A stretch of DNA of 64,000 nucleotides from an uncultured Lentisphaeraceae bacterium (GTDB taxonomy: Bacteria; Verrucomicrobiota; Kiritimatiellia; RFP12; UBA1067), in assembly GCA_964390795.1 (NCBI GenBank), contig CAYMLQ010000001.1:2365-66364 (forward strand), read 5' to 3'. How positions within the stretch are numbered: the first letter of the stretch is position 1; each line of letters opens with the position of its first letter. The notes beneath the pieces were generated by a model. The model was not told where the DNA came from and made no database searches. It worked only from the letters and a program-made list of their open reading frames with translations. The position numbers were made by a program, and so were the translations under genes. Below, one piece after another: positions 8,177-40,207 of the stretch.

Positions 8177-8337
8177 CGCCAGCACCTCTCTTAGTTTCGC
8201 TACTGAAAACACCGACGTCACTGGATGACACAAATGATTAATGTTTGTTTAAAGTAGCATGGCTCCCATATAGGCGCAAGCCAAAATGTTGGGAAAACCC
8301 ATCCCGGGCGAGCGGTGCTGGCCGCGCCTCTCATTTT

Positions 8338-22000: not shown

Positions 22001-22265
22001 CAACCCGGTTGGACGTCGCCCACGCTGTAAACCCCGGCTTGTCGTAAACCGAAGCCTGAAGTTCAAAACAGTAACTGCATCCCAGCGTACGCCCGAAGTT
22101 AATCAGGAAAATCTGGCTCTCGCTCCGGGCATACCCCCGGGCACCCTCAATGTCTGAAGTCCACACGCCGGGCTCGGAGAACACGGGTGAAATCGTGGCC
22201 ACGGCCTCCGCCTGGCCGGCCCACAACAATCCTGCCAAGAACAAAATGGATCCAAACCTTTTCAT
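16056..22265 (-). CDS. Giant secreted multidomain protein (paralog 4): N-terminal thioredoxin-like CxxC module, a WW-VSSE module, Flg_new repeats, two tandem FGE-sulfatase (SUMF1-like) domains, He_PIG and the conserved C-terminal family domain
   Basis: The track ORF 16056..22280 begins at a GTG; I prefer the ATG at 22263-22265 (MKRFGSILFLAGLLWAGQAEA). The thioredoxin-like motif is FLINFGRTLGCSYC. Two FGE-like domains lie at aa ~625-900 and ~1005-1290 (nt ~19580-20408 and ~18410-19268) and share identical stretches (GVFEVTQRQWELVMG, LPTEAQWEY). The C-terminus reads ...GRGFFLWADKASYLNAQNKPVPYTFNWSYDFLLLGL. Confidence 0.85.
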   Translation of the reverse strand: MKRFGSILFLAGLLWAGQAEAVATISPVFSEPGVWTSDIEGARGYARSESQIFLINFGRTLGCSYCFELQASVYDKPGFTAWATSNRVALVYADYDAGSNDPLVQEVHRRYPTAINFPTIIVVSPSDGVTAIGQFHAVRNRSYNGQKLTPLNPASFASMVMSCSDDWNDPYDNVTTNAWTVSFAQDGSMIPEGGRTLTRTDLHDWFAFTNFVAGQRYELGRFSFGNEFDEDVVLPTYLLYTNQATAMAKQAWKALSFSAEEASDTFVSPVSGTLYVCATIADPVTNRVIEAENSRSMYALRHRVCGVPGPELDAGDLVWTTGGDAAWYGQWRESYDGNDAACSGPLQNGQSSWLETTVTGSGTISFWWRVSSEYDFDKLSFSADGVEQSFSSGTEDGWVQQSVVLTAGRHTLRWVYSKNGRQADGEDCGWLDQVSWTPTGFAVMFDACGGTVSPSVKPVTPGAAYGALPVPVRAGYTFEGWWTGGPDATGTRVTETTVVGSADTLYAAWTPLTCNVLFDPAGGTVTRELKSAAYGQAYGSLPVPSRAGYSFMGWWLTLNGVAGLEAANTRVPVATNHTLVAKWERNEAALYLVVDLSGGPGSASYPFSYLSAIPAGGWSDEYKTTRLVLRKIPAGVFTMGSPDDEVGRFDDEVQHEVTITKDFYAGVFEVTQRQWELVMGTRPSFFDNSSWYATRPVESVSYDDVRGSVAGAGWPGSSAVDVASFMGRLRAKTGLSSFDLPTEAQWEYACRAGTATALNSGKNLTAADRCDNLDVVARYGYNSGAILPDGSVDGIPPDADTNQGTAKVGSYLSNAWGLYDVHGNVAEWSLDGYGPFAGSVSDPVGAGVNPVRIFRGGFWWFDATWCRSANRNFNGSGMQDYGIGFRVFQTLTSSALDPVIVTVNALPEGVVESAYSVSFEVAGGMAPYTWSLVSGSLPAGLTLTTSGELRGAPTAVGSSSFTVGVTDRNARSATRAFTLAVYGSAGQRFLVIDLSGGSGASSYPISYLSEVPAGGWADAYKTTKLVLRRIPAGSFTMGSPATELGRDPKDDETQHGVTLTKACYAGVFEVTQRQWELVMGNKPSYFNNATVYATRPVESVSYVDIRGATAGARWPVSSTVDTASFIGKLRTKTGLLSLDLPTEAQWEYTCRAGTTLALNSGTSLTGADTCPNMAAVGRYTNSTVFASTARTVSTNAGTAKVGSHLPNAWGLYDLHGNVWEWCLDWQGTYESTVSDPAGAATGDLRIRRGGGCFDVAWVCRSANRGGGSVNFKGMAVTGLRLFAPLSAQAPVISSSAPAVEAVGAVEGGTLALSLTASDAADSDAARGMLAVSWFVDGTLKQVTKSGAPAAIASVFAYKPGAETVSGTVSRVVTVKAIAQDRQGASSERAWSVCVTNAPVAQKLTFKTLPVKVTGEADFDPGVTASSLLPVVYSSGNGAVAEIANNRVRIVGAGSAVITALQQGSVDFLPATATQTLTVKARLTTNVQGGGGSVSGAGAYVPGTRVTLTARPQSGYTFRRWEDGSQSPTRALVMPTADMAVTAEFMLTQNVSRPTIGTVSEQSATVGVFYSLPFDIQSDTLPTVTFSGLPLGLKYDAATRSLTGVPTAYGSKPVTVTVRNASGQTSVITFGMSVDSLPAWAQGTFNGWHMDSILGAGQISASVTALGKISGKIMVWGTNHTFGAASYFRTNTYPEAFCIRAEVKAGKSVLVLNCRISRLAAGTPQVLSVAEGDVMIGEAGCQNVVLYRNVWMDADMRAVATNYTGYYTAALPNLPSADASDDVAGSGYLTFTVDKAGGVKTAGKLADGTAVSASAPLIIDENGAVFMVVNVVPAEYKGGSLFGFVEWCLPEPEQADACTTLRLLESRSVLQWGSFNPLATARYGEGFSRELDLTGGWYDLLGNLYRYYDGMTLQVGISEDAADPAPLVFVGTNRYESVYWEPTGVETHVVTDRFGVMTGLAAPRAGTPVKVEGAYNYGETENDVGLTLSLTRNTGIFKGQFKAWFDYGTTHTYKSVAYEGVLTPETGATFDGVAGRGFFLWADKASYLNAQNKPVPYTFNWSYDFLLLGL

Positions 22266-22426
22266 ACTACACCCTTTCACTATGCTTACAGCACAATCTT
22301 CGCCGAAACATAAATGTTATTAAACAACGATTACATTGCTGAGTCAAGCACGAAAATGCACAAAAATGCTAATCGGTTCTGACAGGGGGGACGCGATTGA
22401 AGTGCGTATCGTGTGCGAAGCGACTT

Positions 22427-22590: not shown

Positions 22591-25500
22591 TCAGTCGGCA
22601 CCCAAGAAGGGGCCGAACAGGAATTCGTAAGACCAGTTGAAGGCATAGCTCGTCGTTTGGCCGGCCGCGTTCCGGTACCAAGTCTTATCCGGGACGAGAT
22701 AAAAACCCATCCACTCGGGATAGCCCTGACTCGCATCGCGCACCGGCAGGAAGACGCCTCTGATCCCCACCGTAATGGTCTTCTGCTTATCGCCGCCTGC
22801 CGTTTCATAGTAGAAGAGGCAAGACCCCGTGAAGATGCCCGTCGCCTTGTTGGGCTTGACGGACATCGACCACGGATTTACGGACGCCGCAACATCGACT
22901 CGCGTGCCGGCCTTGACGAGCGTGACGGCCGGAAAAGCGACCGCTGCGATCCCCGATGCGAAGGCGGGCAGGCGTCCAGGTTCTGGCGCCGACGCCAGCG
23001 CGTAGCCGGACGTCCCTTGCTTGCCGTCGAAATCGGCAGGCGCGGTGAAGACAGACGCGATCCCCAGTTCGCTCGCGCCGTAGCGGTCCGTCAGGCTCAC
23101 CCTGCTGCTGTCGTAGTAACCGCCGGTCACCTCCACTCGGGTCGTGAAGCCGGCGATTCCGTCCGGCAGCCACCCGGTCGTCGGATCGTACCCAAACACG
23201 GCCTTCGGATCTGGATTGATCCAGCGTAGCCCGTTGAGATCGCCGCAAAGCCCGCTGGTCCCGCTGGCGGCCCCGTCTTCCGCCGGCTTCAGGTAGACAA
23301 GTCCGTACAGCCCTCCGCCCGCGCCATAACCTGAAGGCTTGCCGCACAGATAGAACGTCGCCCGATCATCCATACTGCAACAATCAGGCCCGTATAGCAG
23401 CACCGTCGAACCGCTCACCGCCTTGCCGTCCGCCACAACACCCGCGTAGGTGACCGTGCCGTTCGCCTTGACGGTGAAGGACAAATAGCCCGATCCGCCG
23501 GGGGCGTTCGCCGAACTCGCCTCGATAACGGGCAGCGCGACCGCATAGGTGCCAGCGTACGTCCGCATCCGGGCGATACCGGCAGGCTCGCTCCACACGT
23601 TGCGCCACAGATCATAAACACCGTCCGGCCGCCCTTCCAGCCTCAATTCCACACCTGTCCCGCTCTCTTGGATCGCCAGTGCGAGCGCCAGCACGTTTGT
23701 CCCCGCCCGCGCAAACAACTGGGCACGGAGAATACCCTCGGCCCGGCTATTGAATGCCCCGGCCGAGAACGAGTAAGTGATGCCGCGATAGGCGAGACGT
23801 CCTGAGAAGGCGCCATCCGCCGCCACCGCCAGCGCGCAGTTCCCGCTTCCGGAGCCCTCCGCCGACAGCACATAGCCGTCGTAATGACCTGTGACGGCCC
23901 CCAACGGAAGCACACGCCACGTAACGGTCACCGCCGTCCCCGCCACCGTCTCCGTACGCGAACCGCTCTTTCGCGAGACCACCGTATGCAGGTCAGCCCG
24001 ACCCTGCCCCACGCGTTTCGGCACGCCCGTCAGCCAGACGGCGCCGTCTCGTACGACCGCCGAGACACCGGCGGGCAACGCCCCGTTCTTGACTGTCACG
24101 CGCAGCGTGCCCTCGCCCGCGTTCGCGACGGCGAACGGCCCTGCCTCCCCATACACGCCGACCATCTGCTCCGGGATGACGACGCCTCCGGCTACCGCAG
24201 GATCATATCCGCCTTCGGTCGCGACGAACTCCGGCGAACCCTCGGGCAGGCACGTCACGGCCCAACGCGGACCGGCAGCGACCGCCCGGCGTCCGAGGCC
24301 ATCCGTGGCGACGGTGTCGACGCGCCAGTACAAAGGCTTCGCTCCTGCCTGAGCCAGCACGGCGTCCAGTCGCGCGCGCTCAGCGTCGTCGCCGGGATGG
24401 GGATAGACCGACTCGGGCTGCTCCGACATTTTTGCGAGTCTGCCGCTGGACACCCCCGCATACACCTCATAGCGGACCGTCACGCCCGCTGGGAATACAG
24501 CCTCCGCTACGACGTCCCGCCAAGACAGCGACAGCCCCCTGTTGATCACGGCGGCCTGGTCCGCCGGCTGCGGCTCCGCCGGCTGCGGCAGAGGATACCA
24601 CGCCACATTTCGGACGCCGCCCCAAACATGGGTCAACCCGCTCCCGCGACGCACCGTCCAGGCGGCGGACTGTTTGCCTGCCGGCACGCTGAATACCGCT
24701 CCCACCCGTAAACCCGCATTCGTGCCAGCGTCAACGACCGTCCCGCCCAGCACGAACTGCATCAGCGAATCATCACCCTCCGATCGCCGGTCGAACCCGA
24801 GAACACCCGGCCCGGTCAGAGTCGCGGACACCGTTGTCGTTGCCCTCGCCGCGACTGAGCCGCTCCGCAGCCAAGCCCCAGCGCGGTCATCATCAGAAAA
24901 ATACCCGTAGAACCAGACGCCGCCAACCGCCCGCAGGCCCGGCAGAAGGTTCGCGGCCTCCGCCGCATACTCGGCCAACGGTTGCACGACGAGGTCATCA
25001 CGGCGAGTCAGGGCAACCGTACCGACCGTTGCTGACAAAAGCGAGGCACCGCCCAAGGGAGTCAGTTTCAACGAGCACGCCCGGTCGGCTTGCCAGCCGG
25101 GCTCGTTGGTAAACGCAAAGGCGAAGGCCTTTGCGTCACTCTCGCCGTTCGCCCAAACCAGGGTCGCCACAGGCTTACGCGTGTTTCCAGAAACCTGCTC
25201 GACACGGCCGCTCACCGCACCGTTCGAACCCGCCAACCGCTGGACGCTGAACAGCGCGTTCGAGCCCTCCGGCAGCGTGACGGCCGCAGCAGGCTCAAAA
25301 CCCAGCCGGCCGGGCACGCGCATCGTCTGTTCCTGTAAAACCACGTCACAGACCGCCAGTTGCTCTCCGACAAAGCAGTTCTTGACCGCGTAGAGCGCCA
25401 CGCGGAACGTCTCGTCACCCTCCCAGACCCCATCCGGCAGCAACGGCACCGTGATCATTTTGGCGCGCTTCGGCCCGACGGACCACACAAGTTCGCCTTG

Positions 25501-26646
25501 CGCGTCAACGTAATCTAACCCCGGCAGGGCCGTACCGGGATCAGTCTCATAGCTCACGCGGACTTCGGCATCGTTCGAGGCCCCGCTAATGTTCACCGTT
25601 AACGTGACGGTGGGCACACGCTCGGACACCATCAGCCGATCAACGGCAAAGCGAACCGTGGCGGGCGGCGTCCCGTACCAATAGGCCAGATCGTACGCTT
25701 GCAACTGCTTGAGCCCGGTGAAACGGGAGACCTTCAGCCAATACCGCCCGGTCTGCGGGATCGTATAGGACAGAACGGCGATCGCCGACGGCGCCATCTG
25801 TCGCTCGGCCACACTCGCGCCCGACGCCGGATCGGCGAAAAGTTGCGCCCGCAACTCGTTGGTCACGCTCGTAGCGGTCGCCGCAAGTCTGAACGACCAC
25901 TGCGCGCCGGCGACGGCGTCGAACGCGTACCAGTCCGCCCCATCGGGCTCGCTCAGCGTGTGCGTTCCGCTGTACGCCTCCTCATCCTCGCAAACGGGTG
26001 CGACGAGACCGGTCGCCCCCTGGTAATAGTCGTCCGCCTCGTCCCAGTCGTCGCCCGAAAGAATCTGGCTCACATTGCGGAGCACCATGTCCAACGATAC
26101 CGTCGTGTTCAGCGGTGTGAACCGGCCCAGCCGGGTGCCGTCCGGACGGACACCGATCAAGGTCGGATATCCGACTTTCAGGTAGGAAACGCCTTTTACC
26201 GTCTGTGTCGGAGCACTGGGCACGGCATAGGAGGTCTGAATCGCATACCGGTTCGTGATCGCAGACTCCCCCTCTTCCAAGGTGATACCGGCGACCGCCT
26301 CAACATAGTTGGTCTCGCGCAGCCAGCACCAGTACTGATCGGCCCGGCCGGGGTTGTCGAACATCACAAGATAGAGCCCGTTGGTCTCCACATACGACTG
26401 CCATACAGAATGGGTCAGCACCATGCGTTCCAAAGGCTGACAGTGCGGACACCACCATGCGCCCGTAAACATCACGATGACGTTGCGCCCCTCATCCCTA
26501 GCTCGCCGCAGGGCGGCATCGTGATCCATCGTCCACTCCCCGACCTCCGCGCCGGTGTAACGCGGGACAATCGCGGGACGCTCAACGACGGCCCGTGCCT
26601 CTACGGCAAACAAAGCAAGCGCCGCAAGCACAACAAGGATCTTCAT
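22591..26646 (-). CDS. Giant secreted multidomain protein (paralog 5, divergent): N-terminal DsbA/thioredoxin-like module with WCPHC active site, Calx-beta domain and a divergent copy of the conserved C-terminal family domain
   Basis: The track ORF 22591..26691 starts at a TTG; I prefer the ATG at 26644-26646 (MKILVVLAALALFAVEARA). The CPHC codons are ~26440-26451. The Calx-beta-like segment reads LDYVDAQGELVWSVGPKRAKMITVPLLPDGVWEGDETFRVAL. The C-terminus (...GFYLVPDKTWYRNAAGQTTSYAFNWSYEFLFGPFLGAD) matches the family motif. Confidence 0.8.
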   Translation of the reverse strand: MKILVVLAALALFAVEARAVVERPAIVPRYTGAEVGEWTMDHDAALRRARDEGRNVIVMFTGAWWCPHCQPLERMVLTHSVWQSYVETNGLYLVMFDNPGRADQYWCWLRETNYVEAVAGITLEEGESAITNRYAIQTSYAVPSAPTQTVKGVSYLKVGYPTLIGVRPDGTRLGRFTPLNTTVSLDMVLRNVSQILSGDDWDEADDYYQGATGLVAPVCEDEEAYSGTHTLSEPDGADWYAFDAVAGAQWSFRLAATATSVTNELRAQLFADPASGASVAERQMAPSAIAVLSYTIPQTGRYWLKVSRFTGLKQLQAYDLAYWYGTPPATVRFAVDRLMVSERVPTVTLTVNISGASNDAEVRVSYETDPGTALPGLDYVDAQGELVWSVGPKRAKMITVPLLPDGVWEGDETFRVALYAVKNCFVGEQLAVCDVVLQEQTMRVPGRLGFEPAAAVTLPEGSNALFSVQRLAGSNGAVSGRVEQVSGNTRKPVATLVWANGESDAKAFAFAFTNEPGWQADRACSLKLTPLGGASLLSATVGTVALTRRDDLVVQPLAEYAAEAANLLPGLRAVGGVWFYGYFSDDDRAGAWLRSGSVAARATTTVSATLTGPGVLGFDRRSEGDDSLMQFVLGGTVVDAGTNAGLRVGAVFSVPAGKQSAAWTVRRGSGLTHVWGGVRNVAWYPLPQPAEPQPADQAAVINRGLSLSWRDVVAEAVFPAGVTVRYEVYAGVSSGRLAKMSEQPESVYPHPGDDAERARLDAVLAQAGAKPLYWRVDTVATDGLGRRAVAAGPRWAVTCLPEGSPEFVATEGGYDPAVAGGVVIPEQMVGVYGEAGPFAVANAGEGTLRVTVKNGALPAGVSAVVRDGAVWLTGVPKRVGQGRADLHTVVSRKSGSRTETVAGTAVTVTWRVLPLGAVTGHYDGYVLSAEGSGSGNCALAVAADGAFSGRLAYRGITYSFSAGAFNSRAEGILRAQLFARAGTNVLALALAIQESGTGVELRLEGRPDGVYDLWRNVWSEPAGIARMRTYAGTYAVALPVIEASSANAPGGSGYLSFTVKANGTVTYAGVVADGKAVSGSTVLLYGPDCCSMDDRATFYLCGKPSGYGAGGGLYGLVYLKPAEDGAASGTSGLCGDLNGLRWINPDPKAVFGYDPTTGWLPDGIAGFTTRVEVTGGYYDSSRVSLTDRYGASELGIASVFTAPADFDGKQGTSGYALASAPEPGRLPAFASGIAAVAFPAVTLVKAGTRVDVAASVNPWSMSVKPNKATGIFTGSCLFYYETAGGDKQKTITVGIRGVFLPVRDASQGYPEWMGFYLVPDKTWYRNAAGQTTSYAFNWSYEFLFGPFLGAD

Positions 26647-26687
26647 AGTGTTTACTTCTTTCCGAATAACTTGGCTGACTGATGGCT

Positions 26688-27521
26688 TCAAGGCGTAGCC
26701 TGCGGCTCGGCCGCTTCAGGCTCCTCCGGCTCGACATTTTCCTGTATCCATTGGGCCGCCGCCTCGGGCGTCGTGTATTCAGTCTGCGTCACGAATACGT
26801 AATGCTCACGGGCCACCTCTCCCGCGACTTTATTTTCGCCTTGGATGATGCCCACGAGCGCAGCAACCGCCAGGTCCTCTTTCAGCTGATCAACCGACAT
26901 CACGAGCGACTCCATGTCCTCCTGTTGACGCATCGAGCCCATGGCTGCAACCAGCAATTCAGCCTTCGCGTCATCCTCCTGGATCTCCTCGAAAGCCATT
27001 TTCCATTGGGTAAACGCATCCGACGCCACACTGTCGTCTTTATCGGCCAACATCTGCGTGAGTTCAGGCAGAGCCTTTAACCCAATCCATCCGAGAACGA
27101 TGAGCACGCGCGAACGGACGTCCGCGTCTTCCGAATCGAGCAACCTGCGGGCGATCTTCAGTGCGCCTTTTTCGTCGCCTGAATCCAGCAGGGCGCGCAT
27201 GGTGTCTGCATCGCGTTCATCTGGCGTACGCGCACGTGCAGGCGCGGCATTGGTCGCCGCACCGGTGGCCCGCCCGACTCCCCCTGTGGCCGTCCGGCTG
27301 GCGGGGCGCTCCAAACGCGCCCCGCTCTTTTCCGCGGCGATGCGGGCAACCGCCTGCGTTGACCCGAGAGCCGGCTCCCGAAGACCCGTCGTCCCGGCTA
27401 CCGGACCACGCCGTTGAAAGAACGCAAAACAGAGCACCCCCGCGCACACCGCAACAACGCTCAGCACTATCCAGACCGGCTTCACCAACCTAGTTGCCCC
27501 GCGTGCGCTCACTCGCCCCAA
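26688..27521 (-). CDS. Membrane-anchored HEAT/PBS-lyase-like repeat protein embedded between giant paralogs 6 and 5
   Basis: 277-aa ORF with a TTG start at 27519-27521, which overlaps the stop of paralog 6 (27509) by 13 bp. It has a single N-terminal TM helix (VWIVLSVVAVCAGVLCFAFF) followed by HEAT-like repeats (DADVRSRVLIVLGWIGLKALPELTQMLADKDDSVASDAF). Its stop at 26688 lies 41 bp before the paralog 5 ATG. The start codon is uncertain. Confidence 0.45.
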   Translation of the reverse strand: MGRVSARGATRLVKPVWIVLSVVAVCAGVLCFAFFQRRGPVAGTTGLREPALGSTQAVARIAAEKSGARLERPASRTATGGVGRATGAATNAAPARARTPDERDADTMRALLDSGDEKGALKIARRLLDSEDADVRSRVLIVLGWIGLKALPELTQMLADKDDSVASDAFTQWKMAFEEIQEDDAKAELLVAAMGSMRQQEDMESLVMSVDQLKEDLAVAALVGIIQGENKVAGEVAREHYVFVTQTEYTTPEAAAQWIQENVEPEEPEAAEPQATP

Positions 27522-30500
27522 CCCTCGCTCCAGTCGGGCAAGAAACGCTCGGCATCAATCGTGAACAGGGCGGAACCCAACCACGTCCGCGTGCCGACTT
27601 TCTCCGGAATCTGATAGAACCCGAGACCGGGCGTCTCCTCATATCCACTGCCGCTCGCTTTGCAGGGCGTCAGCACACCTTGGAATTTCAGCCCGACCTG
27701 TTCCTTCTGAAGCGTACCGAGCGCATTCCCGTACCACAAGCCGAACGTGCCGCTGAACAGACCTGTCGCACGCGTAAACTTCAGCGCCAAATTCCCCGGA
27801 TTCGTGGAATTCTCGAAGTCATACAATTTCGTGTTCGTAGCGTCTTTCGCCAGTGCGCGCGCGTCCGTCGACAGGGTATCGCCCACGACGTTCACCGCCA
27901 CGTTCCCATAGGTGTCGGGCGTACACAGCAGCACCGTGTAGGTGGTCGCGTCGAACGCGGCGGGCGCCTGCATCGCACCCACCGTCAGCACGGCGTCCAG
28001 ATAGTAGGTCTGCAGGCTGAAGATCGTGTCGTAATAGCCGCCAACCGGCACCAGCGCCAGCCCGAACCCGTCGGTTCCGCCCCGCGTCGCGTTGGCGTCG
28101 GCGTTGTACCAGTCAAGCTGGCCGGTGGCGACCGGCAGCCCGCTTTGCGGATCGCTCGCGATCACGAGCCAGCCTCCCGCCGCCATCTTGGCCTTCGCCG
28201 TGTACACGGGAATGAGCAACGCCGGAGCGCCGCTATCCTCATAATCGGACACGTAACCCGGCACAGCCGAAGCCGTCCAAGCCGTTCCGTCGGCCAAGAC
28301 GCCCGAGAGCTTCGCGCTGCCCGTCGCGGCCAGCGTGAGCGTCACATAGCCCGCCCCGGCCGGAGCGCCGTCAACCGGCTCCGCCACCGGCAGCGACGCC
28401 GCGTAATAGCCGGCCGCGGACTTGAACGCGGCGAGCGCCAGTGCGACCTTGCTGTTGTCCCTGACCAGCTTGCCGCTGTACGTCACCTCGCGGGCACTCT
28501 TGTTGTCAGCCGCAGGAATCCACAGCACGAGTTCGGCTGTGGCCAGCGCGTCCACCGCGCCCGGGTCCGTCGCGGCGCCGCGACAGGCCGCCACCGTCAG
28601 CGTGTTCGTGTAGGCTTTGCCCGCGACCGTACTTTTCAACGTCAGCAGCGCGAGCAGACCCGGCTGGCCACCCGCAACTTCGGGGATGCTCTCACTGAAC
28701 CCGCTTCCCGTGAACGCGTAGGTCTTGCCCGCGATCATCACTTTGGCGCTGAGCCCGCCCGCTTCGGCCGCCGTGTAGGAGGACACCGAGGCCAACGCCT
28801 CGTGCGCGTTCATTGCATCCGCCGTCAGCAGTCCGTTGAACGTGCCTGCGGCCAGGCCGGCCGGCGCAACACTGAATGGCGCGGCAAAGGTCGTGCCGGC
28901 CACCGTCGCGGTTCCGACCTTGACCGAGGCCTGAAAGATTGCAGTCACCGTGTTCGTCTTGGCAGGAATACCGGCGAGGTAGGTCTCTGCGCCGACCGTC
29001 TTCAGCACAAGTCCCTGCGGAAGTCCGGTGGCTTTGAACGTCTCGCCGTTCGGCGCGTCGAGCGGCCCGATCAGGTAGGAGAGCCCTTGGATCAGCTGAT
29101 ACCCCGCGCCGTCAGGATGGGCGAATGCAGACAGCGCGCCAACCACAAGATCCTCCGTCAGGGGTGCGCCCTGCGCCTCATTCCAGATGGTGAACGACCA
29201 GGCCGCTCCCGGGTTCGTCAGCTTGTCCTGCGCAGGATCGGAGGGGTCGTCGCCCGGAACCACCGAGTCCACCCGCCAGTAGTACGCCTTGCCTGCGGCA
29301 AACCCGTCGTATATGGAACAACTAGTGCAATACTCACCTTCGGTGGCGTAGTCGGAAATCAGCGCGCCGGTCCGGTTCAGCTTGGCAGCCGTGTCCGCGA
29401 TGTAGATGCGGAACAGGCCCACGCCCTCGGCCTTCCACCGGAACGTGCCTGAGTTCCCCAGCGACAGCACCGCCTTGTCCAGCGGCTCGACCAGCGTCGG
29501 CGCCCGCAGCGGCGTCCACTCGAACGGCTGGCCGCTCCAGTCGGCGAACCGACCGAAGACCTGGGCGTCCGCCTCCGAACCCGCCCCGCGCGTCACCGTG
29601 AACTTCACCGTCTGCGCCCCCTTGGCCACATAACGGACCACTTCCGCGCCGTCACCGCAGGCGATCGACTGGGAGCCGATCATACAGGTGAGGGCGCTGC
29701 CGTCACCCTCTGCGCCTCCGGAGAGCTCGCCCGCGAACCGCAACGTGCCCGGCCCGGTGAGCGTCACCGTCACTTCGGACTTGCCCTTTGCGGCCAGCGG
29801 GGCACACCGCAGGAGACCCTGCTCGTCGAAGAACCACGCGCCAGCCACGGAGGGCTTCAACGCGCTGCCGGTCATATTGCCGCCCGCAGCCACCCACTCC
29901 TCGAGCGTACGCGCGACGGACGGGTCGCGGATCTGGAACGCCACCGAGGCGGCCCCGAGCGTCGCTCCGCCGGACGCGGCCGTCAGCTTGACCGTGAACG
30001 CCTTGGCCGCCAGGAACGGGTCCTCGGTGGTCAGCGTGGCTACCGTAAACGGTTTGGGCGAGAGGTCGCCCGCCTCCCACTCCAAGGTCTCGGATGCAGC
30101 CTCAAAATGCGTGCCCGCCAAAGCCGTGCCAGCGACCGTTCCCGCCGTGACCGAAACGGCGCCGTCCGCGCCGTCCGCGCGGGCGATCCACAGGGTCACC
30201 GCGCCGCCTGCGCCAACCGTAACGGCCGGGGCTTTGGCGTTCGCAAAGGCGTTGATCTGCTCCGCGTCAGACCCGAAACCGCTGAATCCCAGTTTGCCCG
30301 GTGCCTTCTTCGTGATCTCCGTCAGGGTGACGACTGCGGTCGTCGGTGCCGCGAACGGCGGCACCAGCTCGTCCGCCTCCACTTCGCCCTCCGGCACCGT
30401 CTCGAGCAGGACCGAGAAGGTCCGGTCACTGTCCCAGCCCGGACGGAGATCCGGGATCAGGGGCACCGAGATCGTCTTAGCCAGGGAATCCCCGTTCGCC

Positions 30501-32929
30501 CACTCCAGATACCCCTTCACCGGTTTGTAGTCGGTTCCGGGCACCGCCGTGATCTGCTGGGTCTGGTAACGCACACGAATCCGCCCGTCCTTGGCGCTCC
30601 GGAGCACCTTGAGGAGCGCGGTCGGCGTCCCCTCCTTGTACGTATACGCGGCCTTCTCAAACTTCACGGTGCCGACCGTCTGCGCCAGGTAGTTCAGCGT
30701 GTAGGCGCTGTCCGTAGAATTTTCCGAGTCTTCGTGCCCGACCTTCACATAATAGGTACCCGCGACCTCCGGCAGGAGCCGAATGCTCGTCCCCTCTCCC
30801 ACCACGGTGGTCAGATCCGCCCGATAGAGGGTGATCCACGGTGCGCCCGTGTACGGCGACAACGTGAACGTGTAATAGGAATCGGTCTTGAAGGTGACCT
30901 TGAACCAGTCCGCAGCGTCATCCTCCCACAGGCTGTGGGAGCGCTTCTGGCTCTTGTTCGTCGGCGTCAGCGCCGTCGCCGTGGCGGGAAGGTCGTCCTT
31001 CGGGTCGGACGTATCGTTGTAGTTGACCGATACGACGGTCGGCGTCGCACCGGCGTTCACGGTCACGGCCTGATTCGCGGGCGTGGCCCAGTCGGTCACT
31101 GGGGTGAACTTCACCGTCTGCGCACCGGCCACCAGAATCGTGGCTCCCGGCGGGTACTTCGGCGCGGAGGCGCCGTCTAAGACCAGCGACCAAGAGGCTC
31201 CATCGGCCGCCGTCGGCCCGCCGATATTCACCTGAAGCATCCCAAGCGACGCGCCCGCCTTATAGGCCAGCGCGTACAGCGTATAGGGCCCATAGTCGAC
31301 ACCCTGCCCGTCCTGAACGAACACCTGGATATAGAAGGACCCATTCGCCGTCGCAGTAAACGTGCCTCCAGTCGCGAGATCGCCAAGTGTCGCAAACGGC
31401 TTGAGGGTCGTGCCGCTCAGCGTGTAGATGTGCGCTGCGAGCGTGAAATCGTCAAATCCCTCGGCCACAGCCTGGAGTTTGTACGAGACGTCCTTGCGAG
31501 CGTCGATCCTGAACCAGTCGGCCCAGTCCGTGAGCCCAAAGGTGTGCGGCCCGTGTGCGGCGCCCGCAGCCACGGCCGAGTCCCCGGCCGCACCGGGAAG
31601 CGGAGCGAGACCCGCCGCACCCGCGTACGCATCATCGCCGGCATCCCAGTCGTCCGCTTGCCCAGCCGCGCCAGCCGCCAGCTTGCGCGCGGAGAAGACG
31701 CAGTCGACCTCCCCGGTGGGCTCCTCCAGATCCTGACACACTCCCACCCAATAGTCGCCGGTCGCTGGCGCCTTGAACGCGATGCCGGTCTGTGAGTCAC
31801 CCTGAGCCTTGTGGCGGTTCACCAGCAACACCGTCCCCTTGGCATCGTAGAGTTCCATCACCAGTCCGTCCGGCACCTCGTCGCCGGACGTCTCGAACAC
31901 ATAGATCGAGTCCTTGGTGAGCGTGACCTTGAAAAGCTGCTCGTCGATGATCGGGTCAAAGAAGCCGCTGGTAGGATTGTTGCGCGCGAACGGAATGAAG
32001 TTCGTCTCCACGCCAACCACGGTCGGTGCCCCGAGGATGATCGCGCTCGCGTGGGCGACTGGCAGCCGCGCCGGAATCACCTGGTATTTGAAGGTGAACT
32101 GTGCGCTGTCGACGCCCGCCACGATCGCCTGATGACGTCCGGTCTGCGCAGGCACAACGATTTTGCTGTTATTATATTCGTCCGTCCAATCGCCCTCGAT
32201 CACGACGGGTTCGGTGACCCCTTCCCCCTCCAGAATCGTGATATCGAAGCCCAGATTGTCCTGCGTTCCTTTTTCAGTCCAGAATTTGTACTTGTTGCCC
32301 AACGTCAGCGTCATGTTGAAATAGTAGAACCCGTCATGCAGGTTGGCCGTCGTTGCGCCGAGATTGGTTCCGACAGAAATCGTCGCCGGGTTCTCATCCG
32401 TACCCACGGGGATCGGCTCGGTCACGGCCGCCGCCACATAGTTCAGCGTCACACTCTGATCGACCTCGCCCGAAAGCACCAGATAGTAGGTGCCGGATGT
32501 CAATTCCTCGTCGTATTCCCAATCAGCAGCGGTGATCGGCAGCCAAACGTTCTTCGCGTCGCGGGCGGGCCAGCCGGAAAAAGCCGTCCAAAGCTCACCA
32601 GCCACAACATGGCCGACAGACGCGTCGACGCTGTCCCCACTGGTCGCGGAAGTCCAGAACGTATATTCTGTTCCCCGTTTCAGAGAGACCTTAAAATAAT
32701 AGACACCCCAGCCGGAAAGCTCGCCTTCCACCTTCTCGTCGGCCAGATTCACGGTCTTGCTGCTTTCAGAGCTACCCACAGTCAGCAGGGCTGCTGTGGT
32801 CCGGCTGTCGCCCGTCGCGGCCAGCACCACTGTCGGCCACGCCAGGCAAACACCCGCAACCGCGCACAGTAGAAACCGGACAACCCCATTCTTGACAATA
32901 ACGACACTCTGATTGACTGACTGTTTCAT
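27509..32929 (-). CDS. Giant secreted multidomain protein (paralog 6, divergent): PPC (pre-peptidase C-terminal)-like repeats, Calx-beta, Ig-like domains and a divergent copy of the conserved C-terminal family domain
   Basis: The track ORF 27509..32962 starts at a TTG; I prefer the ATG at 32927-32929 (MKQSVNQ...), which has a GGAGGG Shine-Dalgarno ~6 bp upstream. PPC-like motifs are GVYYFKVSLKRGTEYTFW and GFYYFNMTLTLGNKYKFW. The Calx-beta segment reads PGTDYKPVKGYLEWANGDSLAKTISVPLIPD. The C-terminal segment (...FTRATGLFSGTF...FQGVLTP...GLGFYQIPEK) matches the family. Confidence 0.8.
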   Translation of the reverse strand: MKQSVNQSVVIVKNGVVRFLLCAVAGVCLAWPTVVLAATGDSRTTAALLTVGSSESSKTVNLADEKVEGELSGWGVYYFKVSLKRGTEYTFWTSATSGDSVDASVGHVVAGELWTAFSGWPARDAKNVWLPITAADWEYDEELTSGTYYLVLSGEVDQSVTLNYVAAAVTEPIPVGTDENPATISVGTNLGATTANLHDGFYYFNMTLTLGNKYKFWTEKGTQDNLGFDITILEGEGVTEPVVIEGDWTDEYNNSKIVVPAQTGRHQAIVAGVDSAQFTFKYQVIPARLPVAHASAIILGAPTVVGVETNFIPFARNNPTSGFFDPIIDEQLFKVTLTKDSIYVFETSGDEVPDGLVMELYDAKGTVLLVNRHKAQGDSQTGIAFKAPATGDYWVGVCQDLEEPTGEVDCVFSARKLAAGAAGQADDWDAGDDAYAGAAGLAPLPGAAGDSAVAAGAAHGPHTFGLTDWADWFRIDARKDVSYKLQAVAEGFDDFTLAAHIYTLSGTTLKPFATLGDLATGGTFTATANGSFYIQVFVQDGQGVDYGPYTLYALAYKAGASLGMLQVNIGGPTAADGASWSLVLDGASAPKYPPGATILVAGAQTVKFTPVTDWATPANQAVTVNAGATPTVVSVNYNDTSDPKDDLPATATALTPTNKSQKRSHSLWEDDAADWFKVTFKTDSYYTFTLSPYTGAPWITLYRADLTTVVGEGTSIRLLPEVAGTYYVKVGHEDSENSTDSAYTLNYLAQTVGTVKFEKAAYTYKEGTPTALLKVLRSAKDGRIRVRYQTQQITAVPGTDYKPVKGYLEWANGDSLAKTISVPLIPDLRPGWDSDRTFSVLLETVPEGEVEADELVPPFAAPTTAVVTLTEITKKAPGKLGFSGFGSDAEQINAFANAKAPAVTVGAGGAVTLWIARADGADGAVSVTAGTVAGTALAGTHFEAASETLEWEAGDLSPKPFTVATLTTEDPFLAAKAFTVKLTAASGGATLGAASVAFQIRDPSVARTLEEWVAAGGNMTGSALKPSVAGAWFFDEQGLLRCAPLAAKGKSEVTVTLTGPGTLRFAGELSGGAEGDGSALTCMIGSQSIACGDGAEVVRYVAKGAQTVKFTVTRGAGSEADAQVFGRFADWSGQPFEWTPLRAPTLVEPLDKAVLSLGNSGTFRWKAEGVGLFRIYIADTAAKLNRTGALISDYATEGEYCTSCSIYDGFAAGKAYYWRVDSVVPGDDPSDPAQDKLTNPGAAWSFTIWNEAQGAPLTEDLVVGALSAFAHPDGAGYQLIQGLSYLIGPLDAPNGETFKATGLPQGLVLKTVGAETYLAGIPAKTNTVTAIFQASVKVGTATVAGTTFAAPFSVAPAGLAAGTFNGLLTADAMNAHEALASVSSYTAAEAGGLSAKVMIAGKTYAFTGSGFSESIPEVAGGQPGLLALLTLKSTVAGKAYTNTLTVAACRGAATDPGAVDALATAELVLWIPAADNKSAREVTYSGKLVRDNSKVALALAAFKSAAGYYAASLPVAEPVDGAPAGAGYVTLTLAATGSAKLSGVLADGTAWTASAVPGYVSDYEDSGAPALLIPVYTAKAKMAAGGWLVIASDPQSGLPVATGQLDWYNADANATRGGTDGFGLALVPVGGYYDTIFSLQTYYLDAVLTVGAMQAPAAFDATTYTVLLCTPDTYGNVAVNVVGDTLSTDARALAKDATNTKLYDFENSTNPGNLALKFTRATGLFSGTFGLWYGNALGTLQKEQVGLKFQGVLTPCKASGSGYEETPGLGFYQIPEKVGTRTWLGSALFTIDAERFLPDWSEGWGE

Positions 32930-32965
32930 CTCGCCCTCCAACGTTTCACCTTTTCGAACCAAACA

Positions 32966-34159
32966 CTATTTCTGCGGCGGCTGGACCTGCGGCGGCTTGG
33001 GCTGCGGCTTCGCCGCCCGTGTCCACAGATTCGTCCCGTTCGGATAAACGATCGCGGCCTGCGCCTTCAAATTCTCCACATAGGCGTCGATTGCCTGCTG
33101 CTGCATCTGCTGGGTCAGATCCGCCTTAAGACTTGCCGGTGCGGCCAGTTCCGGCGCTGGCTCGCGACACAGGAGAATATGCGCCAACTTAAGGGATTCC
33201 GGCTCGATCACACGGCCCTTATCGTTCTTCTTGGCCGGAATATGTTCCAGCATTTTGACCAAATGAAACCCTTCGTCGTCTTCGAGGACGTCGCTGACCT
33301 CGCCCGGTTTGAGCGCGAAGACCGCCGCCCGCATCTTCAGATTCTGAAACTCGGTACGCTCAAACTCGCCCCAGTAACCGCTGTTGCCTGGCGCGGAGCG
33401 CTGACATTCGGAGTGCTGATCGGCAAGCGTGCCGAACTCGGTTCCTTTGATAATCTCTTCGCGCCACCCTTTAAGCCGGGCGATCTTCAGCGCATTGGTC
33501 GCGTCGATAGCCGCCTGTTCCCCACGAATCGCAGCGTAGGTGGCCTCCATAAACGCATCGTCCACCTTGATTTTTGGGGGGATGTTGGTCGCGATCAGCG
33601 TACTGACCCACACTGTCTGCTCGGCCTCCTTCAACAAAGCCTCTTCTCCGCCGAAAAACGCCTTTTTGAACACGTCCAGTTCCTGGCGCTCCCGTTTCGC
33701 CGCTGCCGCGATCAACTCCTCGGCACGCTTCCGCACCTCCTCCTCGCCCAGCACCTTCCGCTGCTTGGCATCCTGGATCAGAAGCTGCGTGCTGATAAAG
33801 CGGGGAATAAAGGTCTGAACCGCCATGCGCAGCATCGCATGTTTCTGAGCGTTCTGCGCATTCGGTGTCTCAGAGATCTGCTTGACGATCCGCTTCATCG
33901 CAAGGTCGTAGTCCTTACGCCTCAGCGGCGTACCGTTGACGGAAATGATCACGTCTTCCGGAGCCATCTGCTCGATCGTCTTGGAGACGCCGTTCGATCC
34001 GGCGCCCAGCAGCGCAGCGTCGACACGGTTGCTCGCGGAATGTGCCGGCTGTACCGCGACCTGTTCTCCGGACTTGCTTTTACCACAGCCGACAAGCGCC
34101 AAAAGGGCGAACGACAGTAAAGCTGGAAAAAAGATGATCATACTTCTGCACACAGACAT
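32966..34159 (-). CDS. Parvulin-type peptidyl-prolyl cis-trans isomerase lipoprotein (SurA/PrsA/PpiD-like chaperone); likely co-transcribed with the giant-protein array
   Basis: 397 aa with a lipoprotein signal (MIIFFPALLSFALLALVGCGKS). The rotamase domain reads LADQHSECQRSAPGNSGYWGEFERTEFQNLKMRAAVFALKPGEVSDVLEDDEGFHLVKM, preceded by SurA-like chaperone helices. Its stop at 32966 is 36 bp before the paralog 6 ATG at 32929. Confidence 0.8.
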   Translation of the reverse strand: MSVCRSMIIFFPALLSFALLALVGCGKSKSGEQVAVQPAHSASNRVDAALLGAGSNGVSKTIEQMAPEDVIISVNGTPLRRKDYDLAMKRIVKQISETPNAQNAQKHAMLRMAVQTFIPRFISTQLLIQDAKQRKVLGEEEVRKRAEELIAAAAKRERQELDVFKKAFFGGEEALLKEAEQTVWVSTLIATNIPPKIKVDDAFMEATYAAIRGEQAAIDATNALKIARLKGWREEIIKGTEFGTLADQHSECQRSAPGNSGYWGEFERTEFQNLKMRAAVFALKPGEVSDVLEDDEGFHLVKMLEHIPAKKNDKGRVIEPESLKLAHILLCREPAPELAAPASLKADLTQQMQQQAIDAYVENLKAQAAIVYPNGTNLWTRAAKPQPKPPQVQPPQK

Positions 34160-34296
34160 TTCGCGATTCTTCCTCGGTTGCTAGGTCACGTTCAATAAAG
34201 AGGTTTAATTTAACCACGTGAGTTCCCTGTTGTCAACGGGTCATTTGGACAGCAACAGGGCAAACAGGTGGGCGCCGTTAGGGCCGGAGGAACTTC

Positions 34297-34500
34297 GCGT
34301 GTCGTGTCGCACCGGGCGTGTTCCCCGCAAACCCGTCGCCGGCCCCTTGCCCTGCGGACGCCTGCGGGGAGGCGTCCCTACCAGGCTTCGCTAGCCCGTT
34401 GTGCGTGCGTGTCGTGTCGCGCCGGGTAGGGCGGGTTCCCCGCAACCCGCCGCCGGCCCCCGCCGTGCCCTGCGGACGGCTGCGGGGAGGCGTCCCTACC
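34297..34500. repeat. Two tandem copies (~34297-34382 and ~34402-34500) of a GC-rich REP-like palindromic element family
   Basis: Unit: CGYGTGTCGTGTCGCRCCGGG...GTTCCCCGCAAMCCGYCGCCGGCCCC...GCCCTGCGGACGSCTGCGGGGAGGCGTCCCTACC, with internal hairpin GGACGCC-TGCGGGG-AGGCGTCC. It lies between the paralog 7 stop and the PPIase gene. Related copies lie at 41633-41731, 58748-58793 (inverted) and a fragment at ~61023-61060. Confidence 0.75.
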
Positions 34501-34570: not shown

Positions 34571-37500
34571 TTACTGATCGACCGGTTCCACCGGTGTCGA
34601 CAGCAACAGGAAATCGTACGACCAATTGAACGGGTACGCGACATCCCGGTTCGATGCATTCTTGTACGAACTCTTGTCCGCCCACAAGAAGAAACCGCAT
34701 CCCTCCTTGCCATCCTCGGCATCCTCGCGCACGGGAGTCAGCAAACCCTCGAACGCGATCGCTTTTGAAGTGTGCGTTGTGACATAGTCAAACCATGCCT
34801 TATATGACCCCTTGAACAGACCCGTCGACCGCGTCAGGTTGATCGTCAACCCGATCGTGTTGTTTGTAACCGCCTTGTAGTCGTAAGCCGCACCAGCTTT
34901 CACAGGCGTCCCGACCTTCGGTGCCGCGAGACCGGTCATCACACCGTAACGGTTGGTGACGGGTGTCAGCGACAGGCCATCCGGATCCCACCAGACCGAC
35001 TCATACCGGTTTGTTCCGGAGATCAACACAGGCGTCGGCTCGTTCGCCGTGCCGACAGCCAACGTCATGCCAGCATAATACCGGTACAGGTTGCCCACCG
35101 TGTCATACCAGCCGCCGTACAAGCCTGTCTCCCGCTTAAAGCCCACGCCGTATTCGCGCGTGGCCTGCGCGTTGTGGCTCTCCCAGAGGAGCGCCTCGCG
35201 GTTCAGCGGGCGCACGACAGTCGGCCCTTCAGCGTCGGGCCGCACGAACTCGGCCAAACCGAAGAATGAGCCGCCCATGTAGGAAGAGGGCGCGGTGAAC
35301 AGCGCGACGAACACCACGCCGTCCGCGTCAAGCAGCAGCGTCGCGCTTGAGGAGACGGTCACGCCGTCCGCCAGCTTGCCCGCCACTTTGACCGCTCCGT
35401 TGCTGGTGGCCGTGAGGGCCAGATAACCGCTTCCGAAGTCGTCGTCGCCGGCGCCGTTCGCCTGAGGCAGCACCGTCGTATAGTAGCCGGCGGCAATCCC
35501 GGCCGCCCCAGCCCGCGCCGCGCTCAGCGGCCTGTCGCCCCAGCCGTTCCGGTAGAGCCTGGCCCCAAACGCCCCCTCGCCGTCCGCGAGTTCCGCGCAG
35601 CCGTTGGTAGGATTCACCAGCAGGGTCAAGACCACCCGGTTGGTTCCCTTAGAGGCTTTCGCGATCAGGTTGGTTGCGGCATACCAGCCATCTTGCGTTG
35701 GCTCACTGTAGCGGCGAGTCACTTCGAAAGCGTAATTCGTGACCGCAAAAACAAGCTTGCCCGTGATTTTTCCCGCCGCGTCGACCGTCAGCGTGGCCAC
35801 TCCGTACTCTTCCGGTACGGTCGCCTCGGCTTCACCCCGCCACGCGTAACCGTTGAACGCTCCGGTCGTCTCGCGGGCGTCGTCCGAGACCCACTCGATG
35901 TCAGAGACCCAGCCGTAGGCGCCCGCGCTGGCGTCGGTCGCCCCGCGCTTGAAAGTCCACGTCACGGTCTGCAAGCCAGCAGGCACCCAGACACGGTTCG
36001 CCCCGTTCGTCACGGTCTGCGCGACTCGCGTGCCGGCCTTCACGATGAAGGTGCAGCCGTTGCCGGTGGCATTGGTGGTGTCCGCATTGAACAGGATCGT
36101 TCCCGGCCCCGTCACTTTGGCCGTCATCACCGAAGAGCCGCTTCTTGAGGCAGGCGGCGCGCACCGAAGGACAGTCCCGTCTTCACCCGTGCCAAACCAG
36201 GCGCCGGCTGCGGCGCTGAACGGCACGCGCGTCACATCGCCGGCGTAAGCGGCGAGGGTCTGCGTGAACACGTCGTCGGTCACGTTCAGCATGGCCAGGT
36301 TTGCGCCTCCCGCCACGCTGGCGTTCGGCGAGGTGAGCGTCAGGGTGACCTTGCGCGCCTGCTGATAGCCTGCCTTGGTCGGCACCTGAACCTCCACCCG
36401 CTTGAGCCCGTCCTCCATGCTGGCCCACAGCGCATTGGTCTGGCCCAGTTTCAGCGTGCCATCCACCCAGGACAGGACGGAGGTCACTGCGCCCGAGTTC
36501 TTGCCGGTCCGCTTGAGCCAGAAGATCAGCTGATCGCCCTCCTTGGCCTCAATAGGGACTCTCGGCGAGAAGGCGTTGTTTCCCTCGCCGATACCGGCGA
36601 ACGCAAGCAGAGGCGCGGTCGGCCTGTCCTTTTCCGTCAGCGTCACCGTCATGAGAGCAAGCCCGTCCAGCTCCTGCGCCGTGTCGGGATCAACCGCAAG
36701 ATCCGCAAAAAAGGTCTCGGCGTCCTCCCACAGCGTGTCCTTCTTCAGCAGGGTCAGGGTCACGCTCTTGTCCGACAGATCCGCCGGCCCCCAGGTAACG
36801 GTCACATTCGTTGCGGCATAATCGCTGCCTGCGGTGGCTGTGCCGTTGCGGGTCGAGACCCGTGCGGTCACCAGCCCTTCCAGAACATCCTCGGCCTCGC
36901 ACCGGACTCGCAGCACGACGGTGCGATCCGACTCGCTCACGGTCACGGCGTTGGAGGTGAAGCCGAGGGCGCACCGCGGCACCTCGCGGTAAAGCAGCCC
37001 GTACTGGACGCAGGACGCCTCATCCGTCTCTCTCACGAGCGCCACAGTCAGCCACCCGCTGGCCGACGCTTGGAAGTCAATGCGGTTCGTCAGCAGGGTG
37101 GACAGCGGAACCTCAAGCCACGCGTTCGCGTTGGTGTAGAAGACGGCCTTGGCGGTCGACGCGGCGACACCCTCCTGAACCAGGTTCGTCAGGCTGACGC
37201 GGTAACGCAAGCCGGCCTGTAGGTTGGTGAAGACCAGCCAATCGGCCGTATCGGCGCCGTTCAGCGTGCCGGCCACCGACTGATTCAAACGGGCCATCGC
37301 GAGATGCAGCTCGGTGTTCTCCGCCCCAGCGTCGCGTGTGCCGTCGCGCGAACCGTCTGCGCCATCGCGCCCATCGAACTGCGCGTCCGTCTCTTGAATG
37401 GTAACCGTCGCGTTTGTGACACCCATCTCCACGGCACCGTCGGCGGACAGCCGCACGCCGAACGACCGGTCCCCCGTCCACAGGTTGCGGGTGTCGGGCG

Positions 37501-40172: not shown

Positions 40173-40207
40173 AAAAAACGGGGAGGCGGTTGACCGCCTC
40201 CCCGTTT
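40173..40207 (-). terminator. Intrinsic terminator of the 40234..41205 gene (bidirectional-looking)
   Basis: CGGGGAGGCGG ttga CCGCCTCCCCG perfect 11-bp stem. On the minus-strand transcript it is followed by UUUUUU (plus strand has AAAAAA upstream and TTT downstream). Confidence 0.7.

Follow-up and report, generated by a model that had tools for sequence, protein, structure and literature searches.

A predicted SurA-like parvulin lipoprotein and HEAT-repeat membrane protein encoded as a conserved pair beside giant secreted proteins of Kiritimatiellia

Introduction

Why should two small genes for envelope proteins lie inside an array of giant genes that all point the same way? We address this question for a stretch of 64,000 nucleotides from an uncultured Lentisphaeraceae bacterium (contig CAYMLQ010000001.1, positions 2,365 to 66,364), called the window throughout. 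It carries seven giant open reading frames (ORFs), G1–G7, among which lie a gene for a parvulin lipoprotein (32966–34159) and a gene for a membrane protein with HEAT repeats (26688–27521). Giants and small genes are all on the minus strand, as an initial annotation of this DNA had stated. The window belongs to a gut or rumen type of Kiritimatiellia, a group of abundant and mostly uncultured bacteria that degrade complex glycans in guts and sediments.

The initial annotation took the two small genes for helpers of the giants. We lean towards a related answer, namely that their products form a chaperone pair that is tethered to the membrane, acts on giant secreted proteins after translocation and has been passed on jointly across Kiritimatiellia (PVC, or Planctomycetes–Verrucomicrobia–Chlamydiae, superphylum), and that this pair probably helps the giants to mature. 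Comparisons covered the window together with related loci that have short flanks (the L-numbered contigs and ENA contig ERZ1426829).

Results

The parvulin gene encodes a predicted SurA-family lipoprotein

The first small gene is predicted to encode a SurA-family parvulin lipoprotein, in agreement with the SurA/PrsA-like assignment made initially. The protein matches Pfam Rotamase (PF00639) over residues 223–303 with 43.5 bits against a cut-off of 21.7, and Rotamase_3 with 33.7 bits against 22.5; matches to SurA_N_3 and SurA_N_2 fall below threshold. A profile built from the window protein and ten relatives finds that, among proteins of solved structure in the PDB, E. coli SurA is the closest relative (E 5.7e-16), and the hidden Markov model (HMM) alignment pairs query residues 98–332 with SurA 34–277, which spans the N-domain and P1. 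The AlphaFold2 (AF2) model has a mean pLDDT (predicted local distance difference test) of 78.7, with disorder restricted to residues 1–56 and the tail. Its N-module is helical and includes a short beta hairpin; the parvulin domain follows, and a helix and a strand form the C-terminus. Foldseek searches with this model return the Bacteroides fragilis peptidyl-prolyl isomerase (PPIase) 8hm3, SurA, LIC12922 and PrsA, all with probability 1.0.

Likeness to SurA and PrsA does not extend to orthology. The window protein is predicted to be an orthologue of neither, because its NCBIfam equivalog scores lie far under the cut-offs: 13.9 bits against 394 for SurA, and 20.3 against 361 and 18.6 against 343 for PrsA. 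Lipid attachment is indicated by the lipobox LVG-C25, in which the cysteine directly follows a hydrophobic stretch. Of 17 locus homologues, 14 show the same arrangement at the N-terminus, and C25 hardly varies in the family alignment A1.

The parvulin domain is apparently permuted and often lacks catalytic residues

In canonical parvulins the strand bearing the first catalytic histidine (xHILv) precedes helix 1. The window protein departs from this order, beta1 before alpha1, in its model and alignment, the beta1-like strand LKLAHILLCR (322–331) coming after the GFH299LVK strand and not ahead of helix 1. DSSP assignment of the AF2 model places strands at 297–307 and 322–331 and a helix at 201–237, and leaves residues 192–262 without a strand. 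The HMM alignment puts LAHILL exactly onto beta1 of SurA P2, the domain that directly follows P1. When the beta1-like strand was moved to the front in silico, coverage of the Rotamase_3 profile grew from 45–114 to 13–114 and the score rose from 34.8 to 37.1 bits. These observations lend modest support to what is the simplest reading, that the domain appears to be a circular permutant of a tandem P1–P2 ancestor, made up of the P1 core and the first strand of P2.

The putative catalytic residues C252, H299 and H327 are kept in the window protein, in L009, L011, L012 and L026, and in the sequences P0001–P0007. In the parvulins of L004, L013–L022, L028 and L033 both histidines are replaced and the cysteine is absent. 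Throughout the family, the N/C chaperone module keeps its motifs V(I/V)VSVNG and IEYPNG. Because the catalytic His/His/Cys set is mostly lost and the chaperone motifs are kept, the function common to the family would be chaperoning and not prolyl isomerisation. The PPIase named in the initial annotation thus survives in part: prolyl isomerase activity is possible, going by the residues retained, only in the close clade of the window protein, most family members having lost the means for it.

The second gene encodes a predicted single-pass HEAT-like protein

The small, membrane-anchored HEAT-repeat protein recognized initially was recovered by our searches, and the product of the second gene is predicted to be a single-pass membrane protein with HEAT-like repeats. 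It matches Pfam HEAT_2 (PF13646) with 30.0 bits against a cut-off of 27.7, and all 15 homologues found in a protein search carry the same Pfam domain. The family profile finds designed HEAT-like alphaRep proteins in the PDB at 1.4e-7, and armadillo proteins too. A single strongly hydrophobic segment of 19 residues (16–34; mean Kyte–Doolittle value 2.69) is followed by a low-complexity linker and then by a conserved helical domain of about 170 residues. Its core motif, LGWIGxxALPELT, is seen in the narrow alignment A2, and R136, W145, L154 and D160 are invariant in the broad alignment A3.

The charge flanking the helix is higher on the N side in 10 of 14 helix-bearing homologues and equal in one. 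This bias weakly favours an N-in/C-out topology, which would place the helical domain in the periplasm. The opposite topology (N-out, with a cytoplasmic HEAT domain) had been prompted by positive charges after the helix in some homologues and was dropped on the same 14-homologue count, which speaks weakly against it. Two tandem HEAT-family paralogues take the place of one in L031 (8850–10525), L032 (4194–5869), L033 (9728–11310) and L034 (4585–6167).

Parvulin and HEAT genes are an ancestral pair linked to giants

Full-length relatives of the parvulin protein (81–98% coverage) form ten clusters at 90% identity in a search of 5.8 billion proteins, all of them metagenomic. Other matches are far weaker (E ≥ 6e-11) and mostly cover the parvulin domain alone. 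A metagenome scan with the narrow HEAT alignment A2 yielded 10 loci, and a scan of GTDB species representatives found the family in metagenome-assembled genomes (MAGs) that bear the labels Kiritimatiellia, Kiritimatiellaeota or 'Lentisphaeraceae' and derive from rumen, termite gut and elsewhere.

The order giant, parvulin, CTD giant (a giant of about 1770–1830 residues ending in the C-terminal domain (CTD) described below), HEAT recurs in L008, L009, L011, L026 and ERZ1426829, and this intervening giant carries Calx-beta wherever Pfam data exist. In both L007 and ERZ1426829 the HEAT gene is followed by a giant with Thioredoxin_7 and Calx-beta domains and, beyond it, by more giants of the C10 or FGE-sulfatase kind. 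In L001, L003 and L004 the parvulin gene sits between giants on the same strand, and in L003 and L011 the upstream genes for a DUF1573 protein and for X323, a secreted protein described below, are kept as well. The arrangement is not a matter of chance, because it recurs in many metagenomic and MAG loci. Homologous arrays elsewhere thus keep both genes, whose absence there the initial annotation had named as evidence against its proposal.

More distant members show the pair without an interruption. Parvulin and HEAT genes are directly adjacent, parvulin first, in L014, L015, L016, L017, L018, L021 and L028, with spacings of 0–10 nt or an overlap. Six of these seven loci come from Kiritimatiellia-type MAGs; L028 is a metagenome locus. 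The parvulins of L014–L018 and L021 are only 22–30% identical to that of the window. Because the genes are directly adjacent in these more distant members, the two are predicted to be an ancestral pair that was split by a giant gene in the lineage of the window, and not two independent insertions into the array. G6, the giant now lying between them, is a paralogue of G5, with which it aligns over about 1250 residues. In L013 two giants lie between the parvulin and HEAT genes.

Giants with the CTD or a thioredoxin domain flank the pair in most loci with enough flanking sequence. CTD giants lie next to it in L001, L004, L013, L014, L019, L020, L021 and L022, and large secreted proteins with Thioredoxin_7, the CTD or both follow it in L014, L019, L020, L021 and L022. 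The giant after the pair in L014 has 1840 residues, a thioredoxin domain and a divergent CTD (23 bits). Thioredoxin giants adjoining the pair occupy 12103–17625 in L014, 15243–19724 in L019 and 10961–14959 in L020. L015 and L017 are too short for their giant neighbours to be judged. Neither HEAT nor CTD genes adjoin two generic parvulins taken as controls (L023 and L024).

Two further arrangements were seen at these loci. In L030 (510–9983) six overlapping same-strand ORFs of 350–1020 residues lie between a parvulin fragment and the HEAT gene and look like one giant broken by frameshifts or assembly errors. In L028 (3096–4280, minus strand) and L029 (523–1707, minus strand) an opposite-strand ORF of 395 residues directly follows the HEAT gene and is itself followed by a 632-residue ORF in L028 and by a CTD giant in L029. 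This 395-residue ORF may be an inserted mobile element.

The giants share a large C-terminal domain

The seven giants carry Sec-type signal peptides and are assembled from Calx-beta, PPC, Flg_new_2, He_PIG, CARDB and peptidase domains. Common to all of them is a CTD of about 420–450 residues (27512–28861 in G6, for example) with pairwise identities of 27–67%. A word-indexed protein search with the CTD alignment gave one match and was replaced by a full HMMER scan of 1.84 billion representatives at 50% identity, which found 4333 proteins at E ≤ 1e-3, of which 606 reach E ≤ 1e-30. They match nearly always at their extreme C-terminus and are up to about 3600 residues long. The passenger regions of G1–G4 are enzymes typical of host-associated bacteria.

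The CTD has no sequence match in Pfam, NCBIfam or the PDB, and is predicted to represent a very large, uncharacterised all-beta family. An AF2 model built from the seven paralogues is all-beta with a pLDDT of 49.5. At this low confidence Foldseek returns DUF3598, lipocalins and TbpB as best matches, all with E > 1e-3, a weak hint that the CTD may resemble small soluble lipocalin/TbpB-like barrels and not an autotransporter or outer-membrane protein (OMP) barrel. The initial annotation had reasoned that SurA escorts beta-barrels and that the CTD hence needs a helper. This argument finds no support, because nothing marks the CTD as an autotransporter or OMP barrel: it lacks matches in the databases named above, and its low-confidence all-beta model recalls, weakly, small soluble barrels rather than an OMP barrel; the CTD may nonetheless be a barrel-like client.

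Some of the giants also carry CxxC motifs. The N-terminus of G5 (26400–26646) is a thioredoxin-like domain with the motif WWCPHC (Thioredoxin_7, 3.9e-9). G7 has SGCAYC near its N-terminus, in a region common to G4; a Pfam thioredoxin match is found in G5 only.

A further secreted protein, X323, is encoded upstream of G7. It belongs to a family of secreted, cysteine-rich proteins of about 250–340 residues, found in L003, L011, L013, L014 and L017–L021, which has no counterpart in Pfam or NCBIfam. Three cysteines are invariant in the family, and the signal peptide (MKKLMMFAAAMTIVGSAFA) shows unusual conservation. A homology between X323 and the CTD, considered on account of a common YDYKA motif, was rejected, hmmsearch giving 0–3 bits and hhalign a probability of 0.4%.

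Thioredoxin domains in G5 and in the giants of L014, L019 and L020 suggest that a redox component has been conserved. Taking in the cysteine-rich X323 as well, one may speculate that disulfide chemistry is part of the work of folding these proteins in the envelope.

Gene packing and a predicted transcription unit

The spacing reported initially was reproduced. The parvulin stop at 32966 is separated by 36 nt from the G6 ATG at 32929, itself preceded at 7 nt by a GGAGG, and the same 36-nt gap between parvulin and giant occurs in L035 and L036 on independent gene calls. The start of the HEAT gene overlaps the G6 stop, either from TTG 27521 with a 13-nt overlap or from GTG 27512, which overlaps the G6 TGA as GTGA. 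The GTG start is the more plausible, and overlaps of 4 nt are found at the corresponding junctions in L007 and L008. The HEAT stop lies at 26688, and the G5 ATG at 26646 follows 41 nt further on.

Upstream of the parvulin gene the packing is different, with 410 bp between it and G7. A candidate sigma70-like site, TTGACA-18-TAAATT, ends 48 nt ahead of the parvulin ATG. The gap also contains two tandem GC-rich direct repeats of about 118 bp (window 34320–34500, minus strand), each beginning GGTAGGGACGCCTCCCCGCAG. In L037 an intergenic region of about 430 bp (3860–4288) is 100% identical to that of the window, next to a parvulin protein that is 95% identical; the contigs of L035 and L036 stop within the repeat of about 118 bp. 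The 410-bp gap was also considered as the site of a riboswitch or other structured RNA; this was rejected, there being no Rfam match at the gathering threshold or at E ≤ 1 and the folding z-score being −0.42.

A strong terminator-like hairpin with a 14-bp stem and a T-run lies at 40176–40207, between X323 and G7. Between 34159 and 22591, 17 terminator-like sites were found with 17.3 expected, none above background. On these consensus scans the parvulin gene probably heads a unit of its own, parvulin-G6-HEAT-G5, possibly continuing further, and is not co-transcribed with G7, because there is a promoter-like site in the gap and no terminator-like signal above background within the unit. The operonic or coupled expression proposed initially is accordingly retained only in part: tight packing, the GTGA or 13-nt overlap and a strong Shine–Dalgarno sequence favour it from the parvulin gene onwards, and the 410-bp gap and the sigma70-like site set G7 apart. 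A separate parvulin promoter would not be a general feature of the family, because L004 and L013 leave no gap between the upstream giant and the parvulin gene, which adjoin or overlap.

The features of the array are collected in Table 1. Beyond it, a gene at 43976–45532 (minus strand) encodes Schlafen AlbA_2, HATPase_c_4 and HTH domains, and an ORF6N-domain gene at 56224–56805 (plus strand) is flanked by recA and alaS. Otherwise the window carries ordinary chromosomal housekeeping genes, among them recA, alaS and those for polyprenyl synthase, RmlD-like and squalene-hopene cyclase-like proteins.

Table 1. Positions of the giant ORFs, the two small genes and associated features in the window
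Feature	Position	Strand	Description and evidence
G1	335–8233	−	ORF; Peptidase_C10 with Inhibitor_I69 prodomain
G2	8338–12213	−	ORF; Peptidase_C10 with Inhibitor_I69 prodomain
G3	12392–15955	−	ORF; M64 IgA-type peptidase
G4	16056–22280	−	ORF; FGE-sulfatase domain
G5	ORF 22591–26691, ATG 26646	−	Thioredoxin-like CxxC, Calx-beta and CTD; directly downstream of the HEAT gene
HEAT gene	26688–27521	−	277 residues from TTG 27521 or 274 residues from GTG 27512; HEAT_2, alphaRep
HEAT-like conserved helical-repeat domain, residues ~113–230	26832–27185	−	Predicted from alignments A2 and A3
HEAT-protein transmembrane or signal-anchor helix, residues 16–34	27420–27476	−	Hydropathy
G6	ORF 27509–32962, ATG 32929	−	Pfam Calx-beta and CTD (CTD HMM 1.3e-135); between the parvulin and HEAT genes
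Parvulin lipoprotein gene	32966–34159	−	397 residues; Pfam Rotamase, SurA profile match, AF2 model, Foldseek
Parvulin domain, residues ~201–331	33167–33559	−	DSSP of model, HMM alignment, in silico re-permutation
Lipoprotein signal peptide, lipobox LVG-C25	34085–34159	−	Read from the sequence; homologue N-termini
Sigma70-like promoter candidate TTGACA-18-TAAATT	34207–34236	−	Putative, by consensus match only (10/12)
G7	34571–40096	−	Four Calx-beta domains and CTD; upstream of the parvulin gene
X323	40234–41205	−	Secreted, cysteine-rich protein of 323 residues; family found upstream of the parvulin gene or its preceding giant

Discussion

A chaperone pair for giant secreted proteins

How might the two proteins serve the giants? 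Since they carry signal peptides, the giants, multi-domain and beta-rich, would be exported by Sec. With so many beta-rich modules they would leave the membrane slowly on its periplasmic side, still unfolded and prone to aggregation. There the lipoprotein chaperone, scaffolded or positioned by its HEAT partner, would capture them, block their aggregation and aid their folding, to which the parvulin of the window clade may add prolyl isomerisation. The folded giants would then pass on to their final location. Transcription from the promoter candidate upstream of the parvulin gene would supply parvulin, G6, HEAT protein and G5 together, the HEAT gene being translationally coupled to G6.

In a stronger form of this proposal, the pair would be a previously undescribed two-component holdase of Kiritimatiellia, parallel to PpiD–YfgM and specialised for giants that end in the new CTD of about 440 residues (more than 4000 sequence clusters). 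Together with the thioredoxin giant and the cysteine-rich protein it would make up a pathway specific to the lineage, by which giant surface enzymes (C10 and M64 peptidases, FGE-type proteins) are folded and displayed. We regard this fuller version as rather unlikely to hold in all its parts.

Several observations weigh against a chaperone pair dedicated to the giants. Giant linkage is not universal, because L016 has RNase R after the pair and no giant within about 9 kb downstream, and a HEAT gene was not found near the parvulin gene in L004 and L020. Synteny among related lineages is in part shared ancestry. The match of the HEAT protein to HEAT_2 is marginal, at 2.3 bits over the threshold, and its topology depends on a weak charge bias. 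Finally, no aspartate is seen among the +2 residues after the lipobox cysteine, which by E. coli rules would send the lipoprotein to the outer membrane, away from a HEAT partner in the inner membrane.

Alternative explanations

The absence of a giant downstream of the pair in L016 speaks for a different reading, in which the pair is the ordinary SurA or PpiD–YfgM equivalent of the lineage, acts on all exported proteins, and lies next to the giants for historical reasons or because these are its heaviest clients. A general housekeeping chaperone of this kind would also suit the compact two-gene unit of the distant lineages (L014–L018 and L021), the single copy seen per locus or window, the envelope- and lipopolysaccharide-type genes upstream of the pair in L014 (for a GT4 glycosyltransferase, a Kdo/WaaP-like kinase and a pyruvyl transferase), and the fact that SurA itself is the best sequence relative. 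It sits less well with the CTD or thioredoxin giants that stand beside the pair in most well-flanked loci, even where the parvulins are 22–30% identical to that of the window; with equivalog scores far under the SurA (13.9 against 394) and PrsA (20.3 against 361) cut-offs; and with a family whose full-length members amount to only ten clusters among 5.8 billion proteins. We consider it a serious competitor, though doubtful.

It is improbable, in our judgement, that the HEAT protein, with or without the lipoprotein, is instead an anchoring or assembly factor that holds the CTD of the giants at the envelope or passes it to an export or sorting machine. HEAT-like solenoids are protein-binding scaffolds, the HEAT gene is predicted to be translationally coupled to a giant, the parvulin catalytic residues are dispensable in most of the family, and the CTD lies nearly always at the extreme C-terminus of very diverse passengers, as sorting or anchor domains are. 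Yet the window has apparently one HEAT gene for seven CTD giants, and the CTD family has thousands of members, so that stoichiometric anchoring is unlikely; moreover, export-machinery genes are absent from the window, and the fold model of the CTD is of low confidence. Least credible of all, to the point of being nearly negligible, is the chance enclosure of two unrelated small genes by a growing array of giant paralogues. Such arrays do expand by duplication and may trap unrelated genes, and the parvulin gene has a separate promoter-like site ahead of it, but more than 15 loci, drawn from different samples and lineages, have the same genes in the same order, and the two small genes adjoin each other where no giant intervenes. 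This conserved synteny contradicts chance adjacency.

A membrane-tethered chaperone pair for the giants is therefore the reading that we prefer. A chaperone pair encoded together with its giants would be a genetic handle on the export and display of very large enzymes, and would gain in interest if it turned out to be a machine dedicated to the very large CTD family. The apparently permuted parvulin domain, for its part, is a possible natural circular permutation from a tandem-domain ancestor.

Comparison with known systems

What is new here is that a SurA/PrsA-like chaperone of a diderm is predicted to be lipid-anchored, has a parvulin domain that seems to be permuted and has often been inactivated, and is joined by a conserved, giant-linked HEAT partner. 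Among the top structural matches are the B. fragilis PPIase that is the target of BfUbb (8hm3/8hm4; E 9.6e-8 for 8hm3) and Leptospira LIC12922 (3nrk; E 9.7e-6). Both are SurA-like chaperones of non-proteobacterial diderms, but their sequence identity to the window protein is only 12–16%, and we know of no conserved HEAT partner or giant-gene context for either.

SurA is the best match by sequence (E 5.7e-16 over the N-terminal chaperone and parvulin domains) and is matched in fold with a Foldseek probability of 1.0; in both proteins the C-terminal helix and strand complete the N-domain. The window protein differs in having one parvulin domain where SurA has two in tandem, and a lipobox where SurA has a cleaved soluble signal. 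Its beta1 follows beta4, as if P1 had lost its beta1 and P2 all else. The link to OMP barrels that the initial annotation carried over from SurA is unsupported for the window protein.

PrsA and PrtM are closer in architecture, being lipoproteins with one parvulin domain inserted in an N/C chaperone module, and PrsA structures (4wo7, 6vj6) are among the Foldseek matches. SpeB (streptopain) is a member of MEROPS family C10, the family to which the peptidase domains of giants G1 and G2 belong. Two precedents tie such foldases to particular clients: the parvulin lipoprotein PrtM specifically serves the giant envelope proteinase PrtP, alongside which it is encoded (PMC3307742), and SpeB maturation requires PrsA2 (PMC8489961). 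The likeness to the second case lies in the C10 giants of the window array. The window host, in contrast, is a diderm PVC bacterium, and its protein scores far under the PrsA equivalog cut-offs, has an apparently permuted parvulin domain and, unlike PrsA and PrtM, is accompanied by a conserved HEAT-repeat membrane partner. The pair thus offers a diderm counterpart of the client-linked foldases PrtM–PrtP and PrsA–SpeB.

The nearest parallel for the pair as a whole may be PpiD and YfgM. The genes for these two proteins are unlinked in E. coli, whereas those of the window family are adjacent. A search of PDB sequences with the HEAT profile did not match YfgM, and the PDB copy used for the fold search contained the PpiD–YfgM structure 8zht, in which PpiD was matched weakly (Foldseek E 0.028). 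In the window family the tether is predicted to be a lipid anchor in place of the N-terminal membrane helix of PpiD, and the partner is HEAT-like where YfgM is TPR-like (tetratricopeptide repeat). PpiD and YfgM are single-anchor periplasmic proteins that form one unit at SecYEG and act on translocating proteins (PMC9643414); a complex and a Sec association would hold for the window pair by analogy only. Both systems would nonetheless join a tethered SurA-like parvulin chaperone, often catalytically dead, to a single-pass periplasmic helical-repeat protein, if the predicted topology of the HEAT protein is right.

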